DNA of 64,000 nt from Rhodospirillales bacterium (GTDB lineage Bacteria > Pseudomonadota > Alphaproteobacteria > Rhodospirillales > UBA2165). The notes under the pieces are model-generated. The model did not search any database. It had not been told where the DNA came from and saw only the letters and a list, made by a program, of their open reading frames with translations. The stretch is taken from assembly GCA_022822205.1 (NCBI GenBank), contig JAJECC010000047.1, positions 6,628 through 70,627 on the forward strand, written 5' to 3'. Position 1 is the first letter of the stretch. Every line of letters starts with the position of its first letter. Position numbers and translations under genes: made by a program. Of this stretch, positions 46 to 22,512 are shown one piece after another.

Positions 46-224
46 CCGTACCTCCTTCGCTGGCGAAGAGACTGTAGTACAAGGACGGCGTGGGTGGAAC
101 GGCGGCCGGTTACCGCCCCGGCAATGCCCGGCCGCCGTTGGCGCGGATAGTATCTTCGCCTTTACGCGCCGGATTCGCGTGATTAGGCTTTTGCCCGGAT
201 TGTCTAGTGATTGGGAGGTGGTTG

Positions 225-1346
225 ATGCCCGACATGCCGTCCATGGAATCCCTGCTCGGCGTCGAGACCGTCGATGACCTGCGGGGCTTGGCCCGCGACG
301 ACCTTCTCGACGCCCACGCCCGGGCTTGGGATTGGATCGCCGGCCCCGGCACGTGGCTTACCGGCGCCGAGCGCCTTGCCGTTGTGCTCGAAGTCCGGCA
401 AGCGGCAAAATGCGATTTTTGCCAAGCCCGCAAAGATGCGCTTTCACCCCTGGCCGTCGAAGGAGAGCATGACCATCTCGGTGAGCTGGACGATGCGTGG
501 GTCGAGGCGATCCACCGAGTTGCAACGGACTCGGGCCGCCTGTCGGCATCATGGGTGGACGGACTGATTGCCGACGGGTTGAGCGACGGAGCCTATATCG
601 AAATCGTCGGCTTGACCGCAATGACCAAGATGATGGATGCCTTTGCCTGGGCCGCCGATGTCGAGCCGCCCCTCCTGCCCCAACCCAGGGACGGTGCGGC
701 AAGCGGTTACCGCCCGCCCGGTGCGAAGAAATCCGACGCCTGGGTTGCCGTCGTCAAGCTGGAGGATGTCAGTGAAACCGACGGACCGCTCTACGGCGCG
801 ACCGCCGGCGGCGTCCATCAGGCCCTGTCCCTGGTACCTGACAGCAAGCGGGCGTTCTGGGCGTTAGGCGAACCGCACTACATCCCCATGGACGAAATCC
901 GCAATACGGACACCCGGGTGCGCGCGATCAGCCGAGCCCAGATCGAGATTTTGGCGGGCAGGACCTCGGCGCTTCACCAGTGCATGTACTGAACGACCTC
1001 GCACGCGATGATGCTCCGTGCGAGCGTCCAGGACACCGGCGCTGAATTCGACCTGACCTCTCTGTCCGGCGACGACGCCAAGGGCACGGTGCCGCACCAG
1101 AACCTATTGCTCGACTTCGCCGAAGCAGTGGTTCTCCGGGACCGGGACACCGCAGCGGCGTTGCGGCCCAAATTAATCGAGGCACTGGGACCCGCGGGTT
1201 ATCTCGACGCCTGCGCGGTTGTCGCCGGTTTCCACGGATTTACGCGCATCGCCGATGCATCCGGCGTACCTCTTGATGAACGCTATCTCGGCGACGCAGA
1301 GGATGTGAAGGCGCAGACAGGGGTGCGGGAATACGACCCGCGTTAG
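225..1346 (+). CDS. AhpD/carboxymuconolactone-decarboxylase-like alkylhydroperoxidase-related selenoprotein (about 373 aa, Sec at codon 256); merges ORFs 207..992 and 1008..1346
   Basis: Both ORFs are in the same frame, separated only by TGA 990-992; read-through gives SALHQCMY-U-TTSHAMMLR, matching the AhpD SxxNxCxYCxxxH motif; hairpin immediately 3' of the TGA; GGGAGG 213-218 before ATG 225; second CDFC motif near the N-terminus. Confidence 0.85.
993..1027 (+). promoter_or_regulatory. Bacterial SECIS-like hairpin
   Basis: CTCGCACG 998-1005 pairs perfectly with CGTGCGAG 1017-1024; GA 1007-1008 pairs with TC 1015-1016; loop UGAUGC 1009-1014 starts 16 nt after the UGA with G at position 2; ACG 993-995 pairs with CGT 1025-1027. 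Confidence 0.7.
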
Positions 1347-4442: not shown

Positions 4443-5366
4443 ATGATTGAAAAAATTTGCTCTTTGAGTGACGCCGTCCGGGACCTGGTCCGGGATGGCG
4501 ACGGCGTGGTCATCGGGGCCTCTCTCGAGACCGCCATTCCCTTCGCCGCCACCTACGAGATCATCCGTCAGGGAAAGAAGAACCTGGAGATGATCGCTCC
4601 CATCTCGGATGCGTCCACGGACATGCTGATCGGCGCGGGCTGCGTCGGCACGGTGACCGGCGCCTGGGTCGGCAATGTTTCCGGCGGGCTTGGCCACAAC
4701 TACCGCCGGGCCGCGGAAAATCAGATTCCGCACGCCCTGGACATCAACGACTACTCCAACTTCACCATCGGCATGGCCCTGTTCGCCGGCGCCTATGGAC
4801 TGCCTTACGCGCCGGTGCGCTCGATCCTGGGCTCGGACATCATCAACTCCAACCCCGCCTTCAAGATGGCGACCAACCCCTTTTCCACCGAGACCGAGCC
4901 GGTGGTCCTGGTGCCGCCGGTGAAGCCGGATGTCGCGATTTTGGGCGTTCAGCGGGCCGATGCGGCGGGGAACAATCATTATTGGGGCTCGTCGGGCCTG
5001 GCCCAGGAGGCGGCGCTGGCCGCCGAACGGGTGATCATCGTCGCCGACGAAATCGTCGAGCCCGATGTGATTTCGTCCGATCCTTCGCGAGTCCTGGTGC
5101 CGGGATTCCGCGTCGCCGCCGTCTGCCACGTGCCGGCGGGCACCCACCCTGCCCCGCTTACCGGACGCTGGCAGCGGGACAGCGCCTTTTTCAACGATTA
5201 TCACGCACGCTCCCGCGACGTGGACGGCTACAAGGCCTGGCTCGATGAATGGGTGTTCGCCGTCGAGGACGCACCCGGCTATGCGAAAAAGCTCGGCGAC
5301 CGATTGTCGGCGCTCAAGATCGCCGGCAGCCAGGATGCGGCTCATGCCAATTACGCCGCCGAGTAG
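4443..5366 (+). CDS. Family I CoA-transferase subunit A (GctA/PcaI-like)
   Basis: SLSDAVRDLVRDGD, DYSNFTIGMALFAGAYGLP, PDVAILGVQRADAAGN. Confidence 0.85.
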   Translation: MIEKICSLSDAVRDLVRDGDGVVIGASLETAIPFAATYEIIRQGKKNLEMIAPISDASTDMLIGAGCVGTVTGAWVGNVSGGLGHNYRRAAENQIPHALDINDYSNFTIGMALFAGAYGLPYAPVRSILGSDIINSNPAFKMATNPFSTETEPVVLVPPVKPDVAILGVQRADAAGNNHYWGSSGLAQEAALAAERVIIVADEIVEPDVISSDPSRVLVPGFRVAAVCHVPAGTHPAPLTGRWQRDSAFFNDYHARSRDVDGYKAWLDEWVFAVEDAPGYAKKLGDRLSALKIAGSQDAAHANYAAE

Positions 5367-5398
5367 AATAAACAAGAAATAACAAATAGTTACGCGAT

Positions 5399-6157
5399 AT
5401 GGCCGACTATTCCACCCAAGAGCTGATGATTATTGCGGCAGCGCGGGAGATTCGTGACGGCGAGCTGGTGTTCGTCGGGATGCGCCTGCCGATCACCGCC
5501 TACGGCGTCGCCCGGCTGACCCACGCCCCCAACGCGGTCGGCATGTTCGAGGGCGGCGTGACGCGCTACGCGCCGGCGGAGGAAACCCTCTACACCATGT
5601 GCGATCCCGCCAATCAGCGAAATGCGGCGTGGACCACCGGCCTGATCCAGGTGATGGGACACCTGCAGGCGGGCCGGGTCGATGCGGGCTTCATCGGCGG
5701 CGCAGAAATCGACAAGTGGGGCAACATCAACACCTCCTATATCGGCGGCCATGAGGACGTCCAGGTGAAGCTGCCGGGCTCCGGGGGCGCGGCGGACATC
5801 GCCGCCATGTCGAGAAGGCTGATCGCCATCATGAACCACGAGAAGCGCCGTCTGGTGGAGCGGGTGTCCTACATCACGTCCCCCGGCTACATCGATGGCG
5901 AGGGCGGACGCGCCGAAGCCGGGATCGCCGTCGGCGGCCCCGCCGCGGTGATTACCGACAAGGCGGTACTTCGGCCCCACGGACCCCAGAACGAGCTTCA
6001 CCTATCGAGCGTGCATCCCGGCCACACGGCGGACGAGGTGATCGAAAACACCGGCTGGGAGCTGAAGACGGCCCCCGGCATGAGCGAAACGCCGGCCCCC
6101 GGCGAGACCGAGATGACGGCGCTGCATCAGGTGGACCGGGAGGGGTTCTGGCGGTAG
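5399..6157 (+). CDS. Family I CoA-transferase subunit B (GctB/PcaJ-like)
   Basis: FVGMRLP, MFEGG (catalytic Glu region), GGAEIDKWGNINTS, LPGSGGAADIA. Confidence 0.85.
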   Translation: MADYSTQELMIIAAAREIRDGELVFVGMRLPITAYGVARLTHAPNAVGMFEGGVTRYAPAEETLYTMCDPANQRNAAWTTGLIQVMGHLQAGRVDAGFIGGAEIDKWGNINTSYIGGHEDVQVKLPGSGGAADIAAMSRRLIAIMNHEKRRLVERVSYITSPGYIDGEGGRAEAGIAVGGPAAVITDKAVLRPHGPQNELHLSSVHPGHTADEVIENTGWELKTAPGMSETPAPGETEMTALHQVDREGFWR

Positions 6158-6163
6158 AGCGGA

Positions 6164-6625
6164 TCAATCCTGGCCGGTGAATTCTATGGCGCCGCCGGGC
6201 AGCAAATAGAGCACAAGAGCCTCGCCGCCGGAGACCGTCGGCTTATGCGCCGAGTCGGGCTCGTAGACCACCCAGCCGGCGCCGCTGCCGTCGAATTCGG
6301 CATCGCCCGACAGCGGCATCACCATGTCCACCTCGCCATTGGGATGCCGGTGGTGCGGGCCGACCACATCCTTCATCCGAACCACATCGACGGAGAACCC
6401 GTCGATATCCTTGATCACCCGGCCGAACTTGATGCCGCCCATCTCCCGGTCGCACATCCACCCCTCGGCCACCGCCGCCTCGCAGGCCGCCTGGATGGAT
6501 TTGAACGTTGCGCCGCCGGCGGGAAACCGGGCGTTGAGTTCGTCGGCCAGCGCGCCGGACACCTCCTTGCCGGAAATCGCGCCGGTGACCTCGCCGATTA
6601 GCGACTGAAAGTCTTCGAGTGACAT
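6164..6625 (-). CDS. DUF4863 family cupin-like protein (PnbB-like; often beside box/benzoate-CoA genes)
   Basis: GFSVDVVRM, GPHHRHPNGEVDMVMP, AHKPTVSGGEALVLYLLPGGAIEF. Confidence 0.75.
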   Translation of the reverse strand: MSLEDFQSLIGEVTGAISGKEVSGALADELNARFPAGGATFKSIQAACEAAVAEGWMCDREMGGIKFGRVIKDIDGFSVDVVRMKDVVGPHHRHPNGEVDMVMPLSGDAEFDGSGAGWVVYEPDSAHKPTVSGGEALVLYLLPGGAIEFTGQD

Positions 6626-7214: not shown

Positions 7215-7721
7215 ATGAGTGATGACGCGAAGCAATCGATCGTGCGCTCTACCCTGAACGGGCGGCCGCGGCGGGATTTCGTCCCCGACAATATGTTGCT
7301 GGTGGATTTCCTGCGCGAGACCGTGGGCCTCACGGGGACGAAGATCGGCTGCGACGGCGGCGAGTGCGGCTGCTGCACGGTCTTGATCGACGGTGAGCCC
7401 CGCCACGCCTGCCTTACCCTCGCCGCGGTTTGCGACGGCACCGAAATCGAGACCATCGAGAGCCTCGATACCGGGGGCCGGCTGGCGGCGATCCAACGCG
7501 GCTTCAACGAAAAGCTGGGCGCGCAATGCGGGTTCTGCACGCCGGGCATGGTGATGGCCGCCGAAGGCCTGCTGCGTGAAAACCCGAACCCGACCGACGA
7601 TGACATCCGGGCGGGCCTCGCCGCCAACATCTGCCGCTGCACCGGGTACGTGAAAATTCTCGAGGCGGTCCATTTCGCCGCCGATGAGCTCGCCGGGCGC
7701 AACAAGGAGGCCGCGGCATGA
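7215..7721 (+). CDS. hcrC: 4-hydroxybenzoyl-CoA reductase gamma subunit (2x[2Fe-2S])
   Basis: [16 protein letters not shown] and QCGFCTPG...NICRCTGY; overlaps next gene by 4 nt. Confidence 0.85.
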
Positions 7722-10084
7722 ACGAGATCAAAAAGGACGTCAAACCGGCGAAGGTCATCGGCGTTCCGCGGCCGCTGATCGACGGCCCGGAAAAAGTCTC
7801 CGGCAAGGCGCTCTACGCGGCGGACTTCATCCCCTATGACCACATGGTGGGCCGGATTTTCCGGAGCCCCGTCGCCCACGCCAACATCATCGAGGTGGAT
7901 ACCTCCAAGGCCGAGGCGCTGTCGGGCGTATTGGGCGTGGTCACCGGCGACGATTGCGACGAGGGGTTCGGCGTGCTCCCCATTGCCCGCTACGAATACC
8001 CCTTGGCCCGGGAACGGGTGCGGTACCGCGGCGAGCCGGTCGCCGCCGTGGCGGCGGTGGATGTCGAGACGGCACAGAAGGCCCTCGACCTGATCGAGTT
8101 CAAGTACGACGAACTCCCCGCCTACTTCACCTCCGAAGAAGCCATGGCCCCCGACGCCGTCTCGCTGCACGAGCACCGGGAAGGCAATATCGAACGGGAC
8201 GTGGATTACGATCTCGGCGACGTGGATGGCGGATTTGCCGACGCCGATCTCGTCCTGGAGCGCGAGTACAATTGCGCGGAGATTTGCCAGGTCCAGTCCG
8301 AACCCCATGCGGCGATCGCCGAGTACGACGCCGAGCGGGACTACATGACGGTTCGCGCCTCCACCCAGGTGCCGTTCTACGTCCACCTGATGCTGGCCAA
8401 GACCCTCAAGATGGACCAGTCCCGCATCCGGATGATCAAGCCCCATATCGGCGGCGGGTTCGGCTGCCGGACCGAGTGCCTGAACGTCGAACTGATCTGT
8501 GCCCTCCTCGCCCGCAAGGCCAAGGGCACCGTGCGTTTGGTGGTCAACCGCGAGGAGACCTTCATCACCCACCGCGGCCGGCCCGAGACCGACGTCAAGC
8601 TGAAGGTCGGAATGAAGAAGGACGGCGCCATCACCGCCGTCGACTGCCAGGCCATCCAGCGGGGCGGCGCCTATGGCGGCTACGGCATCGTGACCATTCT
8701 CTACGCGGGCTCGCTGATCAACGGCATCTATCAACTGGATGCGGTCCGCTACAACGGCCTCCGGGTGCTGACCAACACCCCGCCGCCGGGCGCCATGCGC
8801 GGCCACGGAACGGTGGACGTACGCTACGGGTTCGAAGCGATTCTGGACGAACTCTCCGTGGAGCTCGGCCTCGACCCCATCGAGGTGCGGCGAAAGAACC
8901 TGCTCAAGGAGCCTTACGAAACCTTGAACGAGATGTTCATCAACTCGTACGGCCTGCCCGAAGCCCTCGATATCGTCGAAAGGGAATCCGGCTGGAAGGA
9001 CAAGCGCGGCAAACCGGGCAAAAGCGGCGACGGCAAGTATCGCGGCCTGGGCGTCGGATGCGCCCACTATCCCTGCGGCGCCTCCAAGCCGGTCAACTGG
9101 ACCGGGGAGCCCCACGCCACGGTTCACCTGAAACTGGATTGGGACGCGTCCATCACGGTGCTGACGGGCGCCCCGGAAATCGGTCAAGGCTCATCGACCA
9201 TGGTCGCCCAGTGCGCCGCCGAGGTGCTTGGGCTCGACATGACCCGCTTCCAGGTTCACTCGGGCGACTCCAAACTGGTGCCCAAGGACAACGGCGCCTA
9301 CTCGTCCCGGATCACCTACATGGTCGGCAACGCCTCCATCGAGGCGGCGCAAAACCTGAAGACCATTCTGGTCGAAGCGGCGGCGAGAAAGCTCGACGCC
9401 AGGCCCGAGGACATCGAGTGTTTGGGCGAGGTCTACCGGGCCGCCAGTCAGGACGAAGGCCTGACCTTCGAGGAAGTGGTGATGGCGGCGCTCGAGGGCA
9501 CCGGCACGATCACCGTGAAGGGCAATTTCGATACGCTCCCCGAAAGCCACGGCACCAGGAAGTTCCGGGGCGGCGCCATCGGCGGCTCCATGGCCTATGC
9601 CTATGCCGCCGAGGTGGTGCAGGTCGCCGTCGATCCGGACACGGCCGAGGTCGAGGTCGAACAGGTCTGGGTCGCCCAGGATGTCGGCCGGGCGCTCAAT
9701 CCGCTCTCGGTCGAAGGCCAGATTCAGGGTTCGGTCTGGATGGGCATGGGACAGGCCTTCTGCGAGGGCACCCGCTTCCACAACGGGCTGCCGATCACCG
9801 GCAATATGCTGGACTACCGGGTGCCGTCCATCGTCGAGTCGCCGCCCATCGACACCCATATCGTCGAAAGCGTCGACCCCAACGGCCCCTATGGCGCCAA
9901 GGAAGCGGGCGAAACGTCCCTCGCGGCGTTCATCCCCGCCTACACCAACGCCATCGCCGATGCCCTGGGCGTGCGGCCCATCGATCTCCCGGTCACGCCG
10001 GACCGGCTGATGGAGCTGATCGAGGCGAAGGAAACCGAAGAGCGGGTCGCGGCCGCCCGAGATTCGTCCGTGGCCGCGGAATAG
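7718..10084 (+). CDS. hcrA: 4-hydroxybenzoyl-CoA reductase alpha subunit (Mo-binding, xanthine oxidase family)
   Basis: [43 protein letters not shown]; flanked by hcrC- and hcrB-type genes. Confidence 0.85.
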
Positions 10085-10094
10085 GAGCAGGCCG

Positions 10095-11069
10095 ATGGAA
10101 TTCATGCCCGACTTCAAGCTCCACCGCCCCGACAACATCGAGGACGCGGTCAGGCTGCGCGCCGAGGAACCGGATGCCCTGTTCGTCGCCGGCGGCACCG
10201 ACATGATCGTCAACGTCCGGCGCGGCATCGAGCAGCCCAAACACCTGATCGATATCACCGCCATCGAGGAGTTGAAATCCATCCTCCCGGACGGCGACGG
10301 GCTGCACATCGGCGCCGGTGTCTCGTTGAAGGAACTTCAATCCGACGAGGACGTGCTCCGTGATTACCCGGCGGTCGCAGAGGCCGCCCGGGCCGTGGCG
10401 GGACCGACCCACCAGGAGTACGGCACCGTCGGCGGCAATCTCTGCCTCGACACCAGATGCCTGTTCTATAACCAGTCCGAATGGTGGCGGCAGTCCAATG
10501 ACTACTGCCTCAAGGAGCGGGGCGATACCTGTCACGTGGCGCCCGGCGGCAAGCGCTGTTTCGCGGCGTTCTCCGGCGACGTTGCGCCCTCGCTTCTGGT
10601 CTACGGAGCCGAAATCGATGTGGTAGGCCCCAATGGGCGGCGCCGGATGCCGCTCACCGATCTCTACCGCAACGACGGCATGGCGCACCTGACCCTCGAG
10701 GCCGGCGACATGCTGACCGCGGTCCACCTGCCGAAGGCGTTGGCCGGATCACCGTCCAGGTACGAAAAGGCCCGGGTCCGCGGCTCCATCGATTTTCCGC
10801 TGGCGGGCGCCGCCGTCCGGCTGGAGACGGACGGAAAGACGGTGAAGGACTTCGTCGTCGCGCTCACCGCGGTGAACCCCTATCCGCAGATCGTCAAGGG
10901 CACCGATGCCTATGTGGGCAGGGAGCTCACCGGCGAAGCGCTCGATGAAATCCGCGAACTGGTCCGCAAGCAGGCCAAGCCCATGCGGACCACCACCGTC
11001 GCGCCCTGGTACCGCCGCCGGGTCGTCGGCGCCCTGGCCCGCCGCCTCACGGAGGAATTGGCCGGTTGA
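10095..11069 (+). CDS. hcrB: 4-hydroxybenzoyl-CoA reductase beta subunit (FAD, [4Fe-4S])
   Basis: VAGGTDM, TVGGNLC and the diagnostic insert C-x15-C-x7-C-x8-C (RCLFYNQSEWWRQSNDYCLKERGDTCHVAPGGKRC). Confidence 0.9.
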   Translation: MEFMPDFKLHRPDNIEDAVRLRAEEPDALFVAGGTDMIVNVRRGIEQPKHLIDITAIEELKSILPDGDGLHIGAGVSLKELQSDEDVLRDYPAVAEAARAVAGPTHQEYGTVGGNLCLDTRCLFYNQSEWWRQSNDYCLKERGDTCHVAPGGKRCFAAFSGDVAPSLLVYGAEIDVVGPNGRRRMPLTDLYRNDGMAHLTLEAGDMLTAVHLPKALAGSPSRYEKARVRGSIDFPLAGAAVRLETDGKTVKDFVVALTAVNPYPQIVKGTDAYVGRELTGEALDEIRELVRKQAKPMRTTTVAPWYRRRVVGALARRLTEELAG

Positions 11070-21864: not shown

Positions 21865-22512
21865 TCAGCCGAGGGCCTCGAGATCGGCCAGGGTCTTTTC
21901 GGGCTCGGGCCGGGTCGTGTAGTTCGGGTGAATATCGGCCGCCCGGACGACGCCGGAGCCGTCGATCACCAGCCGCGAAGGTATGGGCAGCGTCCAGCTG
22001 TCGTCGCCGTTGGTTCCCGGAAGGTCGAGACCGAAACCCTCGTAAATCTTCTTCACTTCGTCCGGCACCTGGAACTTGATGCCGAGTTCGGCGGCATAGT
22101 TGTTGCCGGCGTCGGTGAGGATGTCGAAGGTCAGGTCGTGCTTCTCGACCATGGCCTGGGTCTTTTCGGCCAGCTGGGGGCAGAGCGCCAGCAAGGTCGC
22201 GCCGGCGGCTTCGATCTGGTCCTGTACTTCCTGCAAAGCATACAGCTCCGCATTACAGTAGGGTCACCATTCCCCCCGATAAACGGTCAGGACCACCGGG
22301 CCCTTGGCCAGCAGATCGGCCGAATTCACCGTCTCGCCCCGCGAATTGGGCAGCGAGAAAGCCGGCAGGGTGTCGCCGGCCTGGATGCAGGTATCGAGGA
22401 TACCGGATTCCGCCAGTTCCTTGGTCGCGGCGCCCATGACGGCCCGAACCTCTTCCGGCATCCGCTTGGCGCCGGCCTCGCGGATGGCGGCAAGTTTTTC
22501 TTCTAAGCTCAT
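21865..22512 (-). CDS. Peroxiredoxin-like (AhpC/TSA-redoxin) selenoprotein, 215 aa, U83-x-x-C86; merges ORFs 22264..22512 and 21865..22236
   Basis: Same frame across TGA 22266-22264: VYRGEW-U-PYCNAELYALQ, equivalent to the family RGxWCPYC motif; LPAFSLPN upstream and LPIPSRLVIDGSG downstream complete the fold. Confidence 0.9.
22225..22263 (-). promoter_or_regulatory. Bacterial SECIS-like hairpin
   Basis: mRNA after UGA: UGCGGAGC (+12..+19) pairs with GCUUUGCA (+25..+32), including two G-U pairs; loop UGUAU with G at position 2, 19 nt from the UGA. Confidence 0.62.

Follow-up and report, generated by a model that had tools for sequence, protein, structure and literature searches.

We describe a gene at positions 225-1346 on the plus strand of a 64,000-nucleotide stretch of a Rhodospirillales genome (contig JAJECC010000047.1, hereafter the window). 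It very probably encodes a single intact two-domain AhpD-like oxidoreductase of 373 residues, in which the in-frame UGA at 990-992 is decoded as selenocysteine (Sec, U256). The gene is continuous across the UGA and belongs to a curated protein family in which the UGA codon corresponds to Cys in non-Sec homologues. Its relatives share a conserved RNA element just downstream of the UGA, and the family is linked to the Sec machinery genes selA and selB.

One gene across an in-frame UGA

Two open reading frames (ORFs), 207..992 (starting with GTG) and 1008..1346, share the same plus-strand frame, and the sole stop codon between them is the TGA at 990-992. Reading through this TGA from the ATG at 225 gives a product of 373 amino acids (aa) that ends at TAG 1344-1346, with the residues around the UGA being AGRTSALHQCMY-U-TTSHAMMLRAS (SALHQCMY-U-TTSHAMMLR). 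A preliminary description of this stretch, made from the letters alone, had proposed that the two ORFs are one gene interrupted by UGA, and the shared frame, the single TGA and the 373-residue product agree with it. We consider ATG 225 likelier than GTG 207 as the start, because GGGAGG at 213-218 stands 6 nucleotides (nt) upstream of it. The features of the gene, all on the plus strand, are as follows:

213-218, plus: Shine-Dalgarno-like GGGAGG, read from the sequence; in a close relative (L085) the gene calls begin at the equivalent ATG
225-1346, plus: complete AhpD-like selenoprotein gene as predicted, 373 codons and TAG, with Sec as codon 256 (translation; NCBIfam model NF041238; substitutions dominated by third positions on both sides of the UGA)
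411-422, plus: CxxC of the N-terminal domain, C63-D-F-C66, in invariant columns of alignments A1, A3 and A5; tentatively placed by hhalign on the CxxC/U of the C-terminal domain (47%)
945-947, plus: codon of Glu241, relay Glu 12 residues before C253, invariant; the spacing equals that of E118/C130 in MtAhpD and E36/C48 in PA0269 (PMC3141380)
981-983, plus: codon of Cys253, first residue of CxxU; Cys in 73/73 sequences (TGC 55, TGT 18)
990-992, plus: in-frame UGA, predicted selenocysteine 256; TGA in 85/85 sequences, Cys at this column in full-length homologues
998-1024, plus: 8-bp stem of the preliminary description (998-1005 / 1017-1024), a lineage-specific alternative seen in the minimum-energy fold and not conserved in the family
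1002-1004, plus: codon of His260 (CxxUxxxH), between the UGA and the first downstream ATG; His in 73/73 (CAC 44, CAT 29)
1010-1028, plus: family-conserved SECIS-like hairpin, stem 1010-1016 / 1022-1028 and loop CGUGC at 1017-1021 (RNAalifold, pairing, frozen codons +8 to +11)

The critical codon was read in 85 sequences, comprising the window, four genome loci from Rhodospirillales metagenome-assembled genomes (MAGs; 82-98% identical) and 80 metagenome loci. It is TGA in all 85, down to around 45% identity, and the frame continues in each of them, so that the TGA split is far beyond chance. The next stop is reached in 69 loci after 115-131 further codons, with one outlier of 156 (L074), and in 15 loci the frame is still open at the end of the contig. 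The true terminator is variable (TAG, TGA or TAA) while the internal TGA is constant, and the downstream part begins with a conserved T-[TA]-[AS]-H-x-x-[ML]-L-R-[AE]-S.

Such constancy bears on whether the gene might be a pseudogene, that is, a Cys gene inactivated by a change of TGC or TGT to TGA and now decaying downstream. A single base change would suffice for this, and gene callers do report two pieces. Against the 82% identical locus L004, however, the substitutions over the 117 downstream codons are distributed as 17, 10 and 63 over codon positions 1, 2 and 3; judged by this pattern, the downstream part is under purifying selection. The TGA in 85/85 sequences, the conservation of the downstream hairpin at the nucleotide level and the linkage of the family to selA and selB (see below) likewise speak against decay. 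We regard a pseudogene as extremely improbable.

We also considered two separate proteins, one of 255 aa ending at the UGA and one of 112 aa independently initiated at ATG 1008. This ATG stands 15 nt past the stop, and public gene calls hold the two pieces of the window as separate proteins of exactly these lengths, with relatives cut likewise; that pipelines would split the gene had been correctly anticipated. Inspection of the sequence before ATG 1008 revealed no AGGAG-like or other ribosome-binding sequence, again as previously described, and the codon is Met in only 75% of 73 distinct sequences and CTG (Leu) in the others. Compared with L004, only synonymous differences are seen in the five codons that separate the UGA from ATG 1008. 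Since the residue at +4 (H260) is His in 73/73 while its codon varies, the stretch before the supposed second start is selected as protein. Two proteins would moreover cut through the E-x11-CxxC-x3-H active site, whereas Cys homologues are continuous and NF041238 spans the junction. We give this explanation a very low probability. Taken together, the constancy of the TGA, the purifying selection, the His at +4 and the variable Met at 1008 exclude both a pseudogene and two independent genes, and point to one gene that is read through the UGA.

Family membership, fold and active site

With U written as C, the read-through protein matches NF041238 (AhpD_rel_CFYUT, "alkylhydroperoxidase-related (seleno)protein", an equivalog) with 428.1 bits (E 2.9e-128, cut-off 175). 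The match extends over aa 24-370 and model positions 2-355 of 357. The active-site motif of the model, C-[F]-Y-U/C-T, is found as CMYUT at residues 253-257, and C-x-Y-TGA-T is present in 73/73 family sequences. The model, known here by its name and description line, thus has the same C-x-Y-U-T motif and two-domain length class as the present protein, which carries CMYUT and not CFYUT. To our knowledge, there is no experimental work on this family. TIGR01926 and TIGR00778 both score below threshold for the read-through protein.

Searching 5.8 billion proteins brought up hundreds of relatives, nearly all of them 230-260 aa long and ending in ...QC-x-Y; these are genes truncated at the UGA by gene callers. 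The same search found a few full-length homologues of around 40% identity which align along the whole read-through product. At the UGA column these full-length forms (P0027, P0029, P0033 and around 30 more) have Cys, for example in QCFYCTSAHA and KCHYCSLSHA. We also searched 1.84 billion representatives exhaustively with the Cys form P0029. Among the best 150 matches, most stopped right before that Cys, and around 35 full-length Cys forms were recovered. The preliminary description had placed the UGA at the second Cys of the AhpD motif and proposed looking for Cys or UGA at this codon in homologues. We find Cys in the full-length forms with both flanks aligning, and TGA in all related loci. 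The opposite case it had raised, in which homologues end at CxY and the downstream part is a separate family, is contradicted by the continuous full-length Cys homologues. Separately, two AhpD-like homologues have Gly in place of Sec or Cys at the redox position (P0122, SFY-G-TT, and P0162, CFY-G-LY).

The structure was modelled on P0029, which is 41% identical, using AlphaFold2 (AF2) with 38 aligned sequences (predicted local distance difference test 95.4, predicted template modelling score 0.94). The C-terminal half of this model has the AhpD fold, its match being Deinococcus radiodurans AhpD (6k40) with a target-normalised template modelling (TM) score of 0.77 and a probability of 1.00, followed by 2prr, 2oyo, 3c1l and Bmp8. 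A comparison of the family profile with the Protein Data Bank (PDB) likewise gives 6k40, with E 1.5e-18 over profile positions 168-349. The C-domain fold is common to 6k40 and the "peroxidase-related" AhpD-core proteins 2prr, 2oyo, 2pfx and 3c1l (TM 0.66-0.77, root-mean-square deviation (rmsd) 3.3-3.8 Å, profile E 1.5e-18 to 7.6e-14), and the string LN-C-x-Y-C-x-x-S/A-H-x-x-x-LR aligns. Those proteins are single-domain, of around 190 aa, and use Cys, whereas the present protein has Sec and an extra N-terminal domain of around 165 aa with a CxxC. As a whole chain, the two-lobed Sestrin2 (5dj4) is loosely similar (TM around 0.48), but with an rmsd of 13-16 Å and 10-11% identity the likeness is one of architecture only and not of membership.

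The proton-relay motif E-x11-C-x-x-C-x3-H is present as E241, C253, Y255, U256 and H260. Alignment A1, of nine sequences, shows no variation at E241, C253 and Y255, and A3 and A5 show none at the first two of these. The same set and spacing are found in Mycobacterium tuberculosis AhpD (MtAhpD, 1gu9/1knc; E118/C130/H132/C133/H137) and in Pseudomonas aeruginosa PA0269 (E36/C48/Y50/C51/H55) (PMC3141380). Direct similarity to MtAhpD, whose partner system is AhpC with DlaT/Lpd, is weak (Foldseek E 3.3, hidden Markov model E 0.08). A profile-profile comparison of the N- and C-terminal domains with hhalign (47% probability, E 2e-4) lays C63xxC66 on C253xxU256. On this basis, we tentatively propose that the N-terminal helical domain (around aa 1-165) may be a diverged AhpD repeat.

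A conserved hairpin downstream of the UGA

We aligned 68 distinct 66-nt segments from the family without gaps. Alignment columns 32-45 are invariant or nearly so, forming a 14-nt block, UGCUCCGUG-N-GAGC. The RNAalifold consensus is a 7-bp hairpin, which in the window has the stem 1010-1016 / 1022-1028 and the loop CGUGC at 1017-1021. It begins 17 nt after the UGA and has a free energy of -9.3 kcal/mol on its own. Its positions are paired in 93.7% of cells across the 68 sequences compared to 84.7% in shuffles, none of 500 shuffles reaching the observed value, and sliding the 3′ partners lowers pairing to 20-54%. Covariation is seen at the two basal pairs (CG to GC and AU to CG).

Codon usage points to the same region. 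Leu at +8 is CTC in 73/73 sequences, Arg at +9 is CGT in 70/73, Glu at +10 is GAG in 49/49 and Ser at +11 is AGC in 71/73. In contrast, the invariant residues Arg-10, Ser-8 and Leu-6 upstream of the UGA use 4-6 codons each. On these sequence comparisons, the freezing of codons is a stronger argument for an RNA element than the covariation.

A small apical loop with a G is the hallmark of the bacterial Sec insertion sequence (SECIS) (PMC1088965). The hairpin at 1010-1028 has such a loop and lies shortly 3′ of the UGA. No Rfam family matched, whether the whole window was scanned at gathering thresholds or 960-1080 at E values up to 10; Rfam seems to lack a model for this bacterial SECIS. The Escherichia coli fdhF-type SECIS, too, lies in frame directly 3′ of the UGA and carries G(U) in the small apical loop of its hairpin, but the present element differs from it in its 5-nt loop CGUGN, in having no bulged U and in beginning 17 nt after the UGA. 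The minimal fdhF element begins 11 nt after the UGA.

An 8-bp perfect stem starting 6 nt after the UGA had been pointed out in the preliminary description. This stem (998-1005 / 1017-1024) does exist at that distance, and the minimum-energy fold of 990-1032, which reaches -19 kcal/mol (z -3.3, none of 200 shuffles being as stable), contains it. It is not, however, the conserved element, which lies 12 nt further 3′. We rejected the 8-bp stem as the SECIS of the family: it is paired in 62% of cells in the 68 sequences, no better than in shuffles, and is already broken by two mismatches in L004. The two hairpins are mutually exclusive because both use 1017-1024.

With the UGA in the ribosomal A site, the 5′ arm of the 8-bp stem (998-1005) would be within the mRNA channel or at its entrance; 1010-1028, in contrast, would be free, with its loop toward SelB. 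We base this proposed assignment of 1010-1028 as the free signal on what is known of the ribosome's footprint and on the precedent of fdhF.

Selenocysteine machinery, candidate partners and significance

Among the 80 metagenome loci, 13 have selA and/or selB within 2.5 kb of the AhpD-like gene, an adjacency far beyond chance when genes are single-copy and genomes span several Mb. In L089, for example, the gene (called as 246 aa and 117 aa) stands back to back with selA (PF12390, PF03841) and selB (GTP_EFTU, Beta-barrel_SelB and SelB winged helices). After selA and selB come a split AhpC-TSA gene (44 aa and 109 aa, motif HW-U-PYC) and a DsbA gene. L090 resembles L089: a Pfam-confirmed SelA adjoins the gene and, although 4736-6593 contains no called gene, tblastn locates a full selB there. 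No neighbour is common to all loci; only selA/selB, the peroxiredoxin-like (Prx-like) gene and DsbA recur, in a subset.

Two arrangements stand out among these loci. The first is a "selenoprotein island" of DsbA, a split Prx-like gene, selB and selA, from which the split AhpD-like gene points away (L089 5498-11113, L090 1989-7846, and also L040, L044 and L045). The second is found in L009, L010, L018 and L031, where selB lies on the same strand as the AhpD-like gene and begins around 10 nt past its stop, and suggests that in this clade the selenoprotein is co-transcribed with its own elongation factor.

We scanned the 64 kb for pairs of same-frame coding ORFs split by one TGA and found four such places. 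Besides the AhpD-like gene, they include a Prx-like (AhpC-TSA/Redoxin) gene on the minus strand (22512..21865, 215 residues), with TGA at 22266-22264 in the context YRGEW-U-PYCNAEL (UxxC). Pfam AhpC-TSA matches across this UGA with 88.7 bits, and public calls cut the gene into 82 aa and 123 aa. Aligned homologues mostly have WCPYC at the site, with one Trp and one Ser. Relatives of 63-67% identity keep the TGA together with an invariant 33-nt block folding into a hairpin, UGCGGAGC-UGUAU-GCUUUGCA with the loop UGUAU, which stands 12 nt after the UGA. Judged from its sequence, the Prx-like gene is a candidate second selenoprotein. The homologues with Trp and Ser are P0270 (HW-W-PYC, Trp being one base from UGA) and P0271 (HW-S-PFC).

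The remaining two TGA junctions, 52182 and 55818 on the minus strand, were rejected as Sec sites and judged to be ordinary ends of adjacent genes. At the latter, the same-frame minus-strand ORFs 55816-56886 and 54991-55761 are joined by TGA 55816-55818. A plus-strand ORF over the same region (55309-56430, 373 aa), chosen by GC content at third codon positions (GC3), has no Pfam match and an odd first-position GC content (GC1) of 0.83; the real genes in 54991-56886 are probably on the minus strand.

The presence of two UGA genes in one window argues that the organism decodes Sec, and we infer that it inserts Sec at codon 256. Alternatively, a near-cognate or suppressor tRNA or a reassigned code might place a standard amino acid (Trp, Cys or Gly) at the UGA. 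Such a reading could appeal to the Prx-like homologues with Trp and Ser at their site and to the Sec machinery not being seen in the window. Reassignment of the code is ruled out, however, as TGA ends ordinary genes (the Prx-like gene at 21865-21867 and, as terminator, L004). The position is moreover the redox Cys of homologues, it is followed by a hairpin with G in a small loop, and family members adjoin selA and selB. We therefore consider a standard amino acid highly unlikely, and decoding as Sec remains our interpretation.

Several observations weigh against this interpretation. In the 64-kb window, ARAGORN detected neither a tRNA nor a tRNA-Sec. A six-frame motif scan of it gave no selA, selB or selD, Pfam gave no sel genes in 30 of its around 55 genes, and tblastn with SelA and SelB of L089 gave no match in it. 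Its neighbouring genes give no direct functional link, the Prx-like gene being 21 kb away. At the RNA level, the compensatory changes amount to around two independent events across clades, so that covariation is modest, and in this lineage a stronger hairpin (-19 versus -9.3 kcal/mol) competes with the conserved one. Finally, Pfam PF02627 (carboxymuconolactone decarboxylase, CMD) scores 21.1 bits, below its cut-off of 23, over aa 226-266 and only with the UGA bridged; neither ORF fragment searched alone gave a PF02627 match.

Bacterial Sec insertion by SelB at a UGA with a 3′ hairpin is established biology, and the decoding step proposed here builds on it. The in-frame hairpin at 1010-1028 would recruit SelB-GTP-Sec-tRNA(Sec) to the UGA. 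The product would consist of an N-terminal domain with C63xxC66 and a C-terminal AhpD-fold domain in which Sec replaces the second Cys; we take it for a putative thiol/selenol oxidoreductase. The U256 selenolate would attack an oxidised partner, forming an Se-S bond that C253 would resolve before the enzyme is re-reduced. As substrate or partner, the best candidate would be the sulfenic or selenenic form of the Prx-like protein, in a peroxide-detoxifying relay of the AhpC/AhpD type. This partner appears most plausible given the AhpC/AhpD analogy and the gene adjacency in L040, L044, L045, L089 and L090. A bolder extension, which we offer as speculation and consider rather unlikely to hold as a whole, is that the AhpD-like CxxU and Prx-like UxxC proteins form a selenium-based AhpC/AhpD-type peroxide pair, encoded in several lineages with DsbA beside selA-selB. 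In it, C63xxC66 would pass electrons on to C253xxU256 within the protein, and the overlapping hairpins may tune Sec insertion here.

Selenoproteins of this kind have been described before. In 2005, Zhang, Fomenko and Gladyshev reported 27 sequences of AhpD-like (COG2128) CxxU selenoproteins from the Sargasso Sea (PMC1088965). The GOS survey of 2008 placed "AhpD-like 1" fourth by abundance and counted 299 Sec forms alongside 902 Cys homologues (PMC2398784). Surveys of bacterial genomes and BSepDB include AhpD-like selenoproteins as well (PMC1794560, PMC13326102). The 2005 and GOS families are, as here, AhpD-like with CxxU and a SECIS-like hairpin with G in a small apical loop. The 2005 set consists of marine reads, whereas the present gene comes from a Rhodospirillales-like genome. 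We infer that our family is equivalent to "AhpD-like 1" and not to "AhpD-like 2" (pfam02627). The JGI name of the relatives, "alkylhydroperoxidase family enzyme", is presumably a COG2128 label. The selenoprotein is accordingly not "hidden", as the preliminary description had it, since the type is both published (PMC1088965, PMC2398784) and curated in NCBIfam.

The surroundings of the gene in the window are as follows:

1-56, minus: divergent gene starting at around 45 (ATG, GGAGG upstream) and running off the window; its equivalent in L085 is a DUF1330 protein of 96 aa
1352-11069: acyl-CoA / aromatic catabolism cluster, syntenic in L085 and conserved only among close relatives; it includes a type-2 acyl-CoA dehydrogenase-like gene (minus), an AMP-dependent ligase, two CoA-transferase subunits and PnbB (4-hydroxylaminobenzoate lyase)
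7215-11069: three-subunit molybdenum hydroxylase (2Fe-2S, MoCo, FAD)

AhpD-like CxxU selenoproteins have been known since 2005 and an NCBI model exists, so that nothing here is new in kind. The finding adds modestly to this picture: a sharply defined SECIS for the family, a recurrent adjacency to selA/selB and a Prx-like selenoprotein gene that suggests a testable partner, and a likely duplicated AhpD architecture. Its practical use lies in the repair of annotation. In public databases this gene and hundreds of relatives are called as a "hypothetical protein" of 230-260 aa plus a fragment of around 115 aa. These split calls hide an intact redox enzyme, and selenoproteins are under-counted in Alphaproteobacteria-like MAGs.

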